The notes: generated from the letters alone by a model not told the origin. Counted from the first letter of the stretch, positions 13,907 through 37,073 are shown. The stretch: 64,000 nt of DNA from an uncultured Candidatus Saccharibacteria bacterium (GCA_964521955.1 CAZFTX010000003.1:1517-65516); one strand, 5' to 3'. Translations and numbers: made by a program.

Positions 13907-13913
13907 AAGAAAA

Positions 13914-13986
13914 ACGCCCGGGGGAAGGTAAGTTCACGCCTCTTTCAATCAGGCGCACACTTAACTTCCTTCCCGGACGTTTTTTG
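13914..13986. terminator. GC-rich bidirectional intrinsic terminator
   Basis: Long stem cgcccgggggaaggtaagtt...aacttccttcccggacg flanked by an A-run upstream and a T-run downstream. It can terminate the GC-rich gene at 14088-14687 on the minus strand. Confidence 0.6.
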
Positions 13987-14087
13987 CTTAGTATTCTATA
14001 CTCTTTCCTCCTTATCTGTGCCAGGCCCATGCATGAAGGCTAGGCACCATTCTTCTTTCTTCTTTAATGATTCGCAGAAACACCCAA

Positions 14088-14687
14088 CTAAATGATTCCT
14101 ACGTGTTTCTTAAATGCTTCCAAAGCAAATGGGATTATCACATCCCGATGCCCGGAGACAGTATTTGCCGGCAAAGCATTCACCGGAAACCACTGGCCGT
14201 TAGCCGGCTCACTTTGGGGAAAGGCCAAAAAAATCTTGCATTCGTACCAGCCCCTGCCTGTATTTTCCGGATAAACGTCGCCCACGAACACGAATTCAGT
14301 TGGGGTCTGAAACTCTTTTGCAACGAGCCTCTCCAAAGCACTCTCTCGCCCTGTGTCAGTATTGCGGAAACCGACCCCAAGCCCGGCCCATTGTGCAGAG
14401 TACCACTTGTCATCTTCAGGACGCTGTTCGAGAAGCACCTCAATCACACCGTTCTCCAGCTTACGAAACGCCACCCCCTCAGCCGCAATGTTGGTCATGT
14501 GGGGAGTCATAGCGTCGTACATCGTGGTACCCATGGGTGTCTTGGGATTTTTGAGGGAAAGCACGACGGCAATCGCACTACAAGCTCTAGCTTGATTTTC
14601 GGCAAATCCATTCTGATCAACCACCACCTGCCCCAAATTAACACCAATGAGAAACTCAATGGCATTTAATAGCTCCTGTGTCGACAT
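14088..14687 (-). CDS. Hypothetical Nudix-fold-like protein (GC-rich island A), paralogous to the genes at 14890-15297 and 36279-36929
   Basis: 199 aa from ATG at 14687 (MSTQELL...), preceded by AGGAGG at 6-nt spacing; the track's upstream M at 14768 is rejected. Local GC is far above background. Distant similarity to the adjacent AT-rich Nudix protein ('EVLLEQRPEDDKW' ~ 'EILLTYREDQWW'; 'EFVFVGDVYPENTGRGWYECKIFLAF' ~ 'KFLFPINYKKTPRGHDVSLVFFMHF'). The overlapping plus-strand ORFs look like antisense noise. Confidence 0.5.
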   Translation of the reverse strand: MSTQELLNAIEFLIGVNLGQVVVDQNGFAENQARACSAIAVVLSLKNPKTPMGTTMYDAMTPHMTNIAAEGVAFRKLENGVIEVLLEQRPEDDKWYSAQWAGLGVGFRNTDTGRESALERLVAKEFQTPTEFVFVGDVYPENTGRGWYECKIFLAFPQSEPANGQWFPVNALPANTVSGHRDVIIPFALEAFKKHVGII

Positions 14688-14765
14688 TCGACACCTCCTG
14701 AAATTTGTCTTTTCGTCAACCTGCCCCAACTGTGAGTGGAAATTGACTAAACATTCTACAATAAA

Positions 14766-14800
14766 CATACAAAAAAAGCAAGGCCAAAACCCTTTGCTTT
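14766..14800. terminator. Bidirectional terminator hairpin (A-run/stem/T-run)
   Basis: aaaaaaagcaaggccaaaaccctttgcttttttt: stem agcaagg/cctttgct flanked by A- and T-runs. It separates the AT-rich Nudix gene from the GC-rich paralog. Confidence 0.5.
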
Positions 14801-14889
14801 TTTTAAACTTTTTTACTTAAACCAATTTTAATTCCCGAAGCTTTTTATACAATATTTTATGTTCTTTTATTGTGTTTTTTGGTAAATTT

Positions 14890-15297
14890 TTAAAAAATGT
14901 TCCGTGTTGTAACATGCCTGACAAAATGCATAAAAAAAACCAATGAAACGTCATGTCCTCGAGGAGTTTTTTTGTAATTTATTGGAAATAAAAACTTAAA
15001 ATTTTTCAATTTAGCCCCAAGTTCATTTTTAGCAACTTTACCCAATCGAGTCTTGAAATCTTCATTCATTCTTAAAAGCCCACCCGGAATATGCCAGCCT
15101 TTCCACCACTGGTCTTCTCTGTAAGTTAAAAGTATCTCTTTCTTTGCATTTACCACAACCAATTCACAAGCAGAAAAAGGAACAATTTTAGTTAGTGCAT
15201 TAAAGACTTCCCCCGGCAAACCTTTTTCTGGATTTGGAAGCTTGCCTAAAAGTTCAACTAATTCTTTTATTTCCTTTTGAGTAATTTTATTCATCAA
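14890..15297 (-). CDS. Nudix hydrolase superfamily protein (degenerate Nudix box; GDP-mannose mannosyl hydrolase/WcaH-like context)
   Basis: 135 aa; 'GWHIPGGLLRMNEDFKTRLGKVAKNELG' matches the Nudix GX5EX7REUXEEXGU pattern except the REUXEE glutamates (KVAKNE). Size and layout resemble MutT. Confidence 0.55.
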   Translation of the reverse strand: MMNKITQKEIKELVELLGKLPNPEKGLPGEVFNALTKIVPFSACELVVVNAKKEILLTYREDQWWKGWHIPGGLLRMNEDFKTRLGKVAKNELGAKLKNFKFLFPINYKKTPRGHDVSLVFFMHFVRHVTTRNIF

Positions 15298-35088: not shown

Positions 35089-36159
35089 TTAAACTAAACT
35101 TTCAAAAATTTTCTTAAACCTATGAACGTAAGTGTGCTCTTGTACGGTTCTTTCGTACCCGGCTTTGGCTATGGCTGCTCTTTCGTCTTCGTGTTCTAAA
35201 TAGTACTTACTTTTTGCAACCAAGTCTTCGGTGTTTTTAAACACGACTACTTCTTTACCCAAATTAAAATATTCCCCTAAATCGTCGTCTGAAACCCCGG
35301 TCATCAAAAAACCACCGCATGCCGGTACTTCAAAAGTACGGGATTTAATTGTTCTTCTTTGTGTTCCAATGGCCGCTTTATAATTTTCAAAAAAATTCTG
35401 AATGTTTAAATGATATTTACCCAACTCTTTTTTTACAAAAAGTTTGGCAAATAAATTCAGTTTTTTCTTCAAACCATAGTAAGGCGTTTCGGTAAAGTTT
35501 AAATTTATTTTACTGTAAGAAAAAATATCCAACATTTCTTGCGGATTACTCCCCCCGCCTGCCGGCCAACCTCGGCCGTGGCCTTTAGCCGGAAGCCCGG
35601 CTTTTTCCAAAGCTTCTATGTAGTCGCCTCGGTTGCCGTACTTTTGCCCAAAAAAAGTCACTTTGTAACTTCCCGGGTCTTTACTTGGGTCTTGGGGTTT
35701 AAACATAAAAGGATTAGCAGCCCACTGGCTTTTTACTACGTTTAAAATTCCCGCTCCCCTGTAAGCGGCAAAAGCTCTGGCGTCGGTAGTTGAAACCAAA
35801 GTAAACAAAGGCGCCCAATAACGGGAATAAACCAAAAAGCGCCAATGATCGTCCCCAAACCAATTGTAAGTTTTGGTTTTGGTTTTTTTGGTTATGTATT
35901 CAATAGTTTCTTTTTTTATTTCTTCGGTAAACAAAAAGCAAAAAAGTACGTCCGGTTTTTCTGTCTCCACTCTTTGAATTAATTGCTTGTTCATTTCGTC
36001 CCTACCAACTTGAACCAAGATTTCGTCCATTGGAAAATAACTTGCCTCAACGCCTTCCATGTTTTTAAGCGTGCCAAAAAAACTCTTATCTTCCAAAGAA
36101 GGACCTCTTTGTGGGTTACCGTATTCGTTTTTAAGTGCGCAAAAAAGAACTTTAAGCAT
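35089..36159 (-). CDS. CgeB-family glycosyltransferase-like protein (Glyco_trans_1_2-type C-terminal domain)
   Basis: 356 aa; C-terminal 'RTFEVPACGGFLMTGVSDDDLGEYFNLGKEVVVFKNTEDL' matches the CgeB/DUF3880-associated GT-B C-terminal signature. Confidence 0.5.
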   Translation of the reverse strand: MLKVLFCALKNEYGNPQRGPSLEDKSFFGTLKNMEGVEASYFPMDEILVQVGRDEMNKQLIQRVETEKPDVLFCFLFTEEIKKETIEYITKKTKTKTYNWFGDDHWRFLVYSRYWAPLFTLVSTTDARAFAAYRGAGILNVVKSQWAANPFMFKPQDPSKDPGSYKVTFFGQKYGNRGDYIEALEKAGLPAKGHGRGWPAGGGSNPQEMLDIFSYSKINLNFTETPYYGLKKKLNLFAKLFVKKELGKYHLNIQNFFENYKAAIGTQRRTIKSRTFEVPACGGFLMTGVSDDDLGEYFNLGKEVVVFKNTEDLVAKSKYYLEHEDERAAIAKAGYERTVQEHTYVHRFKKIFESLV

Positions 36160-36215
36160 TTTATTTAGTTTAAATATTTATGCTTTATTATAACGAAATT
36201 TGAAAAAACTTGTTA

Positions 36216-36244
36216 TTGACAAAAAGTTAAAATTATGATTAAAT
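36216..36244 (+). promoter_or_regulatory. Promoter-like element TTGACA-17-TTAAAT (TG-extended) upstream of GC-rich island C
   Basis: TTGACA 36216-36221; 17-nt spacer ending in TGA; TTAAAT 36239-36244; then RBS AAGAGGA (36267-36274) and ATG at 36279. Confidence 0.45.
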
Positions 36245-36278
36245 ATACTGTTCGAATCAACTTCAGAAAGAGGAATTA

Positions 36279-36929
36279 ATGAGCTCAAACAATGTTGTAC
36301 TGCTACCCAGGATTGTACACATGGTTCCAAACCCCGAGTTCGGAAACGCTTGGCTAACGGTAAGGCACCGGTACTCTCAAGGCCACCCACCATGGCCAAT
36401 TCACGACCTGTACGCCGTTTCTGTTCCCAAAGATCACAAAGAAGGCGGAGTCGAAAGCGAGATCTTCCACGCATACGAAAACCCCATGACCAAAGCCTGC
36501 GCCGACAATGTTATCGCAACCAGGCTTTCAGACGGGACCCCGGCCGTGCTAGGCCTCAAGCGCAACAATCCGCCTTACAAAGGGACGTGGTACATGGCCG
36601 GCGGAGCCATGTTTGGCTACGATGATCCTGCGAATTTCCTGGCAACAAAATGTTGGAAAGAAACAGGTCACGCACTTGAACCCCAGGTTTATCTGGGAAC
36701 CTTCTTCAACCACGCCGAAGACTGGCCGGCAAGCGTTCTGGCTATTTGCTACGCAACCCTTGTCCCCATTGCAAACATTGAACAGACCAAGCCCGCCGAC
36801 GGCCACGACCAGTGGCGGCTCTTTACCGAAAAGAGCCTCAAAGAGATACCGGTAAATGAAACCCACTGGTACCCCATGCTGGTCTGGGAACACGTCCTTA
36901 AGACCATGTTCGACTTCAACATTCGCTGA
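36279..36929 (+). CDS. Hypothetical Nudix-fold-like protein (GC-rich island C), paralogous to 14088-14687 and 14890-15297
   Basis: 216 aa; GC-rich. 'GTWYMAGGAMFGYDDPANFLATKCWKETGHAL' aligns with the Nudix-box region of the native gene ('GWHIPGGLLRMNEDFKTRLGKVAKNELGAKL'). 'YLGTFFNHAEDWPASVLAICYATLV' aligns with 'KFLFPINYKKTPRGHDVSLVFFMHFV'. Own RBS and terminator. Confidence 0.5.
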   Translation: MSSNNVVLLPRIVHMVPNPEFGNAWLTVRHRYSQGHPPWPIHDLYAVSVPKDHKEGGVESEIFHAYENPMTKACADNVIATRLSDGTPAVLGLKRNNPPYKGTWYMAGGAMFGYDDPANFLATKCWKETGHALEPQVYLGTFFNHAEDWPASVLAICYATLVPIANIEQTKPADGHDQWRLFTEKSLKEIPVNETHWYPMLVWEHVLKTMFDFNIR

Positions 36930-36956
36930 CACCACTCACAAGTGGAAGCAACCACA

Positions 36957-36994
36957 CGGCGGGCGCGACTCTTTGCGCCCGCTGTTTTCTTTTG
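36957..36994 (+). terminator. GC-rich intrinsic terminator of island C
   Basis: cggcgggcgcgactctttgcgcccgctgttttctttt: 8-bp GC stem followed by a T-run. Confidence 0.65.
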
Positions 36995-37073
36995 GTAAAT
37001 TTCTCCTATTTAAGTTAAAATACAATAAATAAAAGGTTTTAAATTTTCGTCGTTTTTATTATTTTTGTCATTT

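Follow-up and report, generated by a model that had tools for sequence, protein, structure and literature searches.

How did three short GC-rich islands come to lie among the surface-glycan genes of a low-GC genome, and what do they do there? The question arises from a 64,000-nucleotide stretch (the window) of an uncultured Candidatus Saccharibacteria bacterium (GCA_964521955.1, CAZFTX010000003.1:1517-65516), whose islands we call A, C and D. Our answer, to which we assign a probability of about 0.65, is that the three are independent horizontal acquisitions acting on nucleoside diphosphate (NDP) sugars, each an autonomous unit inside the glycan operons. The acquisition itself is well supported, and the best label for the units is chromosomal, moron-like accessory genes acquired by recombination.

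The whole window has a GC content of 36.8% and nearly all of its genes lie on the minus strand. Against this background, GC rises to a sharp plateau three times in the fine-scale profiles (~13.9-14.75 kb, 32.95-33.9 kb and 36.25-37.0 kb), and the corresponding islands are each ~0.8-1.0 kb long (A 13.9-14.8 kb, C 32.9-33.9 kb, D 36.2-37.0 kb). The island genes were compared with the 49 native genes of the window, which have a GC of 0.358 +/- 0.033 and a GC at third codon positions (GC3) of 0.298 +/- 0.040. The gene of island A reaches 0.503 and 0.540, respectively (GC3 z = 6.0), that of C 0.514 and 0.561 (z = 6.5) and that of D 0.533 and 0.622 (z = 8.1). Codon-usage log-likelihoods fall below zero only in these three genes, and the correlation of their relative synonymous codon usage with the native pool is 0.19 for A, -0.20 for C and -0.30 for D, as opposed to 0.57-0.73 for single native genes. 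Codon usage is alike in C, D and the C-family genes of two other loci, L007 and L018 (r 0.47-0.66), while that of A is unlike them, which suggests at least two donor backgrounds.

Three further GC bumps, at 45295-48768, 52540-53547 and 61924-63876, were rejected as additional islands: their GC3 is native and their GC at second codon positions (GC2) is high, and they therefore reflect amino-acid composition and not foreign DNA. The open reading frame (ORF) at 45295-48768 (minus strand, 1157 aa) has no Pfam match, a GC2 of 0.518 and a positive GC skew unlike the rest of the window; as its GC3 is native, a surface protein of biased composition is more probable here than foreign DNA. Between islands C and D, the SDR epimerase at 34012-35061 (minus strand) shows an intermediate GC3 of 0.446 (z ~3.7), and no other native gene has a lower codon score. 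Its orthologues in L006 and L007 are 75-76% identical to it, and it may stem from an earlier or partly ameliorated acquisition, or from recombination.

Each island contains one conserved protein gene with a strong Shine-Dalgarno (SD) site and an unusually GC-rich hairpin terminator (Table 1). The terminator stems (-24 to -41 kcal/mol) are followed by a common interrupted tail of the form TTTT-C/CC-TTTT, whereas the native terminators of the window have AT-rich stems and clean T-runs without this interruption. Translation of C is read from GTG 32978, seven bases after AAGGAGG (32964-32970), and not from TTG 32948; that of A from ATG 14687 behind AGGAGG, which gives 199 aa instead of the 226 aa of the mechanical ORF. 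Island A lies on the operon strand, and its 3' region of ~180 nt is closed by the terminator hairpin. The promoter-like site that directly follows this hairpin would restart transcription of the downstream DegT operon. The initial annotation had described three compositionally foreign GC-rich islands, each an autonomous single-gene unit with promoter, SD and terminator. Their positions and foreign composition are confirmed by GC, GC3 and codon usage alike, and their organisation by the expression signals, the predicted promoters being clear for C and D and ambiguous for A. The reading of the islands as structured RNA was rejected, Rfam at its gathering threshold matching only a tRNA in the window.

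Evidence of insertion is clearest at island C. A 68-nt direct repeat surrounds it, with 94% identity between the copies and a spacing of 1084; its score of 56 is far beyond chance, the best shuffle having reached 15. One copy begins the functional GT2 gene and the other is a decayed duplicate of that beginning, which still stands behind the original epimerase-GT2 spacer. The bounds of the repeat thus define the inserted DNA as 32875-33890, with promoter, gene and terminator included, and the native GT2 stays intact beside it. The same 68-nt scar is present in an independent assembly, L013, a 98% identical strain contig. The flanks of A carry a 22-nt inverted repeat whose score was reached by 0 of 300 shuffles; it is AT-rich and we rate it as marginal. 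At D, a 10-nt direct repeat, AAGTTAAAAT, was rejected as a target-site duplication because it is at chance level (39/300 shuffles).

The island junctions recur in four independent assemblies (L001, L002, L005 and L013) at 96-100% identity, and the islands are therefore not assembly chimeras. Two Logan assemblies contain the exact D protein with its flanks, while L005 (carrying A) and L013 (carrying C) are 96-98% identical strain variants with the same context. The L005 variant differs by a ~60-nt indel at the 3' end of gene A (window 14018-14118, L005 410-449), by which the C-termini become ...KKHVGII in the window and ...KEYTGRCFGWSADKEESL in L005.

Neither Pfam nor NCBIfam gives a significant match for A, C or D themselves, and all three belong to rare families without a Pfam model. 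In a search of 5.8 billion clusters we found six homologues of A (61-92% identity), eleven of C (41-96%) and one of D (49%); the D family comprises 62 cluster representatives by exhaustive HMMER search. Metagenome scans gave no further locus for family A and a single weak one for family D (L012, 22% identity). Among 185,579 species representatives, C matches two genomes, both Saccharibacteria metagenome-assembled genomes (MAGs). The homologues of A at 61-66% identity sit in contigs of ~51% GC (L003, L004), where they look compositionally native and close a densely packed operon, following a HAD-like gene; the terminator tail after the L003 homologue (CGGGCGTTTTTTCTTTTG) resembles that of island A.

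By fold and profile evidence, A and D have the Nudix alpha/beta/alpha fold. The catalytic Nudix box GX5EX7REUXEEXGU is found in neither, each having one invariant Glu. In A the box reads G106-x5-T-x7-R120-L-V-A-K124-E125, then F-Q, with the one Glu invariant in the family; in D it reads G-x5-D-x7-TKCWKETGH, and P50, G108, E128 and H176 are invariant in the family. A 32-member profile of D matches the NrtR Nudix domain (E 1.7e-6) and GDP-mannose mannosyl hydrolase (GDPMH; E 1.5e-3), and 8 of the 32 members match Pfam NUDIX (PF00293). Neither A nor D gives a match to the GDPMH model NF011963 (cut-off 146 bits). That A and D are close paralogues was rejected, BLASTP and small-profile comparison being negative; with a richer D profile a weak superfamily-level match appears (hhalign E 1.4e-4, probability 53%), and by these profiles the two are remote superfamily relatives only. 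They differ from the GDPMH enzymes of colanic-acid and O-antigen clusters (Gmm/WcaH/NudD) by N-terminal extensions of ~65-75 residues, by the single Nudix-box Glu and by the lack of an NCBIfam match, and from the Nudix-like ligand-binding domains of NrtR and AraR by the lack of a C-terminal winged helix, being single-domain proteins of ~200 aa with N-terminal extensions. Residues ~18-62 of the D extension (window 36330-36465) match a module of which a 2135-aa protein has 12 copies and a 5367-aa protein 6 (P0027 and P0062 of the representative library); the extension may be a reusable binding module.

The structure model of C has a GT-A Rossmann-like fold. The protein has no Pfam, NCBIfam or PDB sequence match, and its family is marked by the invariant motifs TTLPN, GRR, WxEPEK, IPRR, GPR and QRxAEE. 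Its identity to dolichol-P-mannose synthase (GT2), GpgS (GT81), MGS (GT78) and MpgS (GT55) is 8-13%; as opposed to these GT-A enzymes it has no membrane anchor, and an invariant E-P-E follows the strand after which a DXD normally sits. The initial assignment of two Nudix-like proteins and one GT-A-like protein is, according to the structure models and profiles, right at the level of fold, while membership of A, C and D in the canonical Nudix hydrolases or in a named glycosyltransferase (GT) family is not established.

The context of the C family in relatives bears on how the units were gained. In L006 and L007 (titled, like L010 and L011, uncultured Candidatus Saccharibacteria bacterium) the glycan backbone is syntenic with that of the window and 50-80% identical to it, which makes a Saccharibacteria genome the most probable source of the window. 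The C-family gene of L006 and L007 lies between the epimerase and Glyco_trans_1_2, another slot than in the window, and is 45% identical to C, as compared with 65-76% for the flanking genes. It is likewise a stand-alone unit on the plus strand, with a promoter-like site, an AAGGAGG SD and a hairpin terminator. The GT2|epimerase spacer of L006 measures 33 nt, and the D slot is occupied there by an unrelated Exo_endo_phos gene. Repeated capture, as the initial annotation had proposed, is thus supported by the scar that C has to itself, by the different slot of its family in relatives and by the codon usage of A, unlike that of C and D.

Two stand-alone units stand in tandem at L006 9400-10930 (contig CAYOXN010000003.1), the first encoding a 117-aa protein with no Pfam match and the second being the C-family gene. 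They share a near-identical promoter-like module, TTGATCAAAAA...TATACT, and an identical hairpin terminator, and the second unit is bracketed by a 52-nt direct repeat (9887-9938 and 10876-10928, ~95% identity, spacing 989 nt). The sister MAG locus L007 has neither the 117-aa unit nor the 52-nt repeat. The repeat in L006 hints at a recurring insertion route.

In every resolvable context, C-family genes are found in glycan loci beside orthologues of GDP-mannose 4,6-dehydratase (GMD), DegT or SDR genes. The GMD of the window (30725-31807) is 59% identical to the orthologue beside the C-family gene in L014; its SDR (28628-29560) is 65% identical to the one in L018 and 59% to the one in L009, and its DegT aminotransferase (29565-30728) 59% to that in L009. 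Because its family is always found beside GDP-sugar genes, C appears functionally tied to the GDP-sugar module. The distant C-family member of L014 is compositionally native in a glycan locus of 57.5% GC.

Based on these observations, we propose that each unit went into a spacer or the end of a gene within a ~40-kb GDP-mannose-derived surface-glycan locus, the recipient genome being low in GC. Entry would have been by uptake of foreign DNA followed by short-homology recombination, either as a single crossover with a circular intermediate or as homology-facilitated illegitimate recombination; since either route duplicates the homologous stretch, a flanking duplication like that at C would be left behind. 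Natural competence has been shown experimentally in Saccharibacteria (PMC10633639). The GC-rich terminators would have travelled with the genes, and the AT-rich promoters would have arrived with the insert or been selected later. Promoters of their own would be needed, since all three units interrupt the operons and two of them, C and D, run antisense. As a soluble GT-A enzyme, C would work with the GMD/DegT/SDR module and would either transfer the modified sugar or produce a sugar linked to lipid-P or to an acceptor. A and D, in which a single glutamate of the REUXEE core is left, probably bind NDP-sugars or cleave them non-canonically, as GDPMH does, or sense ligands, and would in this way tune the NDP-sugar pool and hence the surface glycan. 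A bolder version of this proposal, which we think unlikely, is that competent Saccharibacteria have a recombinase-independent 'plug-in' route that exchanges ~1-kb NDP-sugar units between the glycan loci of different lineages; short-homology, Campbell-type recombination would then leave direct duplications of 50-70 nt, such as those at island C and at the L006 unit.

The label we chose is taken from phages. A phage moron is defined as an extra gene with its own promoter and terminator and a deviant GC, absent in relatives (PMC3594210). The islands resemble morons of the HK97/HK022 type in being single extra genes between conserved genes, absent at the same position in relatives, with deviant GC (GC3 z 6.0-8.1) and with a promoter and terminator of their own by consensus match (C and D clear, the A promoter ambiguous). 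They differ in location: their neighbours are glycan-biosynthesis genes, with no phage genes and no viral relatives. Three viral-contig scans found no viral relatives and a BFVD fold search gave generic GT-A matches only (TM ~0.45); a phage or moron origin of the units was rejected, nothing specific having come from either search. The existence of morons also makes it too strong to call units of deviant GC, with promoter, gene and terminator, an undescribed class, as had been suggested at first.

Loci for O-antigen and capsule are well known as mosaics built by horizontal gene transfer and homologous recombination. The glycan locus of the window is like them in that GT and sugar genes of deviant GC are exchanged between conserved flanks and that the content varies between strains. 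It differs from block replacement in that the islands are single GC-richer genes with their own promoter and terminator, two of them antisense and one with a 68-nt scar. The unusual feature is that single-gene, GC-richer units, self-expressed by prediction, are combined with a long duplication scar in a genome of the candidate phyla radiation (CPR).

Several observations weigh against our account. The promoters are predicted, as consensus matches only, and the sole candidate for A is weak, below the threshold of the promoter scan. In the shuffle test D has no insertion scar or significant flanking repeat, and A has only its marginal inverted repeat. The Nudix boxes of A and D are degenerate, and C has no canonical DXD, the invariant W-x-E-P-E-K following strand 108-114, where the DXD is expected; the biochemical roles of all three proteins are inferred from fold and context alone. 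No donor could be named by taxon. C-family genes co-occur with the same GDP-sugar module everywhere, the copy in L006 and L007 is vertically inherited (77% identity in the same slot, with a backbone of 78-93%), and the L007 copy is still a GC3 outlier (0.63 versus ~0.46). C may be a long-standing component of the module that is replaced by xenologues, and not an optional add-on.

These last points lead to the explanation by xenologous replacement, in which C, and possibly the Nudix genes too, would be partners that the GDP-sugar pathway cannot do without, foreign alleles taking their place from time to time. The constant company of GMD, DegT or SDR orthologues and the vertical inheritance in L006 and L007 fit this explanation, as do two features of the window: island A (Nudix fold) adjoins a short, possibly frameshifted native Nudix-like gene, and island C (GT-A fold) was inserted at the start of the native GT2, which also has a GT-A fold. 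Against it, the epimerase|Glyco_trans_1_2 junction of the window, a 27-nt spacer, retains no remnant of a C-family gene, GT2 is intact, the frameshift of the Nudix-like gene is unconfirmed and D has no native counterpart nearby. We thus hold replacement to be a possible but improbable explanation of the islands.

Just as doubtful is the dedicated, undescribed mobile system of 'glycan-editing cassettes' put forward by the initial annotation, in which ~1-kb units would be moved between glycan loci by one mechanism. Direct repeats of 50-70 nt surround ~1-kb units in two genomes (68 nt in the window, 52 nt in L006), the C-family unit occupies different slots of one conserved backbone, and the L006 tandem units have near-identical promoter and terminator modules; the interrupted tail is common to the three island terminators and not to native ones, and the codon usage of C and D is similar. 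Ordinary recombination can explain the repeats, however. Alignments of the 5' and 3' flanks, proposed at the outset as a check for shared motifs, gave no boundary sequence, att site or terminal repeat common to A, C and D; the flanks share only generic expression signals, namely a -35 TTG, a -10, a GGAGG SD and a hairpin with a T-run. Pfam annotation of the 64-kb window found no integrase, transposase, other recombinase or phage gene, A and D have no convincing scars, and the families are extremely rare, with no active mobility evident.

Integron cassettes are similar as ~1-kb single-gene units with an imperfect 3' inverted repeat, gathered at one locus, but the islands have no intI, attI or attC core sites, and have promoter-like sites of their own on mixed strands. 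Their three 3' hairpins share no sequence and no integrase lies in the window; instead of a promoterless, co-oriented array, the units are spread over 23 kb, at distances of 18 kb and 2.5 kb. As to insertion sequences, transposons and miniature inverted-repeat elements, there is no transposase and only the marginal 22-nt inverted repeat at A, and the 68-nt duplication at C is far longer than typical target-site duplications. With nothing but generic signals in common, no recombinase, no attC-like element and no viral relatives, a defined mobile cassette class is not supported by the islands.

Less likely again is that the episymbiont took the genes directly from its GC-rich host (partner) bacterium. 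Actinobacteria are the hosts on which cultured Saccharibacteria grow (PMC10633639), gene acquisition by Saccharibacteria is documented (PMC8764695), and the islands are GC-richer than the genome. They reach only 50-53% GC, however, with a GC3 of 0.54-0.62, and the nearest native-looking homologues lie in contigs of 51% and 57.5% GC; the only taxon-labelled relatives are other Saccharibacteria, and the codon usage of A, unlike that of C and D, makes a single donor unlikely. The actinobacterial hosts of cultured Saccharibacteria have ~65-70% GC, above the 50-53% of the islands, and are not obviously their source.

That the islands are artefacts, either assembly chimeras or GC-rich structured RNAs with spurious ORFs, is effectively refuted: the assembly is metagenome-derived and GC-rich DNA in an AT-rich genome gives long spurious ORFs on both strands, but the junctions are identical in independent assemblies from other samples (96-100%), homologues are conserved at the amino-acid level (41-66% identity), the structure models are confident or moderate with recognised folds, the SDs are correctly spaced and Rfam gives no match.

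Table 1 Positions of the islands, their predicted signals and adjoining native genes in the window (nucleotides counted from its first base).
Feature	Position	Strand	Remarks
22-nt inverted repeat flanking island A, left arm	13845..13866	.	partner 14801-14822, 91% complementary
Promoter-like site TTGACC-17-TATAAT (11/12)	13878..13906	-	directly after island A terminator
Island A terminator, long GC-rich hairpin AACGTCCGGGAAGG...CCTTCCCCCGGGCGTT, then TTTTTCTTTT	13905..13984	-	dG -40.9 kcal/mol
Island A coding sequence (CDS), 199 aa, Nudix-fold, N-terminal helical extension	14088..14687	-	
Island A Shine-Dalgarno AGGAGG	14694..14699	-	6 nt upstream of ATG 14687; read from sequence
Island A promoter candidate, weak, TTGCTT-17-TAGAAT (8/12)	14753..14781	-	overlaps T-run of upstream native terminator
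22-nt inverted repeat flanking island A, right arm	14801..14822	.	
Native Nudix-like gene, GDP-mannose mannosyl hydrolase-like	14890..15297	-	GC3 0.27; directly upstream of island A
Native GDP-sugar module: SDR epimerase/reductase, DegT aminotransferase, GDP-mannose 4,6-dehydratase	28628..31807	-	Pfam; orthologues adjoin C-family genes elsewhere
Direct-repeat copy 1, first 68 nt of functional GT2 CDS	32807..32874	.	GT2 true ATG 32874, - strand
Inserted segment of island C, 1016 nt: AT-rich leader with promoter, CDS, terminator	32875..33890	+	
Island C predicted promoter TTGACA-17-TATAAT (12/12)	32917..32945	+	
Island C CDS, 270 aa, soluble GT-A-fold protein	32978..33790	+	GTG start
Island C terminator hairpin, then TTTTCCTTTT	33818..33872	+	dG -27.9 kcal/mol
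Direct-repeat copy 2, decayed pseudo-5' end of GT2, reads MVSIITALYKSERYLK-stop	33891..33958	.	insertion scar
Island D promoter-like region, TTGACA 36217-17-TTAAAT or TTGTTA-18-TATGAT (9/12 by scan)	36210..36245	+	
Island D CDS, 216 aa, divergent Nudix-fold protein	36279..36929	+	ATG behind GAGGA SD
Island D terminator, 13-bp stem (9 GC pairs) at 36956-36985, then TTTTCTTTT	36956..36993	+	dG -24.4 kcal/mol

By Pfam annotation, type IV pilus genes extend up to 4.3 kb of the window and are followed by the glycan locus, from ~4370 (Bac_transf) to ~44304 (the second Wzy_C-TPR protein). It encodes GMD, two DegT aminotransferases, several SDR epimerases, methyl- and carbamoyl-transferases, a flippase and many GTs. 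The initial annotation had the islands confined to this locus, and all three do lie inside it; this placement has little weight, because the locus, at ~40 kb, fills ~62% of the window and the chance of finding three of three inside is p ~0.24, which is insignificant from this window alone.

The native Nudix-like gene beside island A scores 28 bits on NF011963, for which the cut-off is 146 bits. It encodes only 135 aa and contains a T8 run (A8 on the plus strand, 14932-14939), at which one additional T would join it to a downstream frame with the end ...FFKNLPKNTIKEHKILYKKLRELKLV, bringing the protein to 160 aa, as long as GDPMH. The repaired 160-aa sequence gains no score against the GDPMH models. 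The run could reflect an assembly error, phase variation at the tract or the decay of the gene to a pseudogene; the frameshift is unconfirmed.

Beyond the glycan locus, the 3' end of tRNA-Pro(TGG) (49593-49621) recurs 153 nt downstream (49746-49774) with 90% identity, and the noncoding 770-nt gap upstream of this tRNA (48769-49538) also holds a tRNA-like fragment; the region (49539-49774) may be an att-site relic of an integrative element. A 118-aa protein at 53572-53928 (minus strand) matches 23S_rRNA_IVP (E 2.4e-40) and bAvd-like, the family to which the accessory proteins of diversity-generating retroelements belong, though the window showed no reverse transcriptase. Three successive proteins at 57463-61834 (minus strand) have weak cohesin, Big_13 and dockerin-like matches and are possibly a cell-surface scaffold system in a CPR genome.

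Understood as independent acquisitions of autonomous units, the islands show how a reduced genome can alter a glycan pathway by way of single foreign, expression-ready genes, with the 68-nt duplication at C as one clear molecular scar of acquisition. They also bring to light three small uncharacterised families tied to GDP-sugar pathways, two of divergent Nudix fold and one of GT-A fold with an EPE motif. CPR bacteria, Saccharibacteria among them, live attached to host cells, and it is probably through surface glycans that they recognise hosts and resist phages. If flanking duplications recur in more genomes, they would suggest that naturally competent CPR bacteria gain genes by a specific recombination route; and the plug-in route, if true, would amount to a chromosomal counterpart of phage morons, dedicated to glycans and diversifying the surface of the episymbiont.

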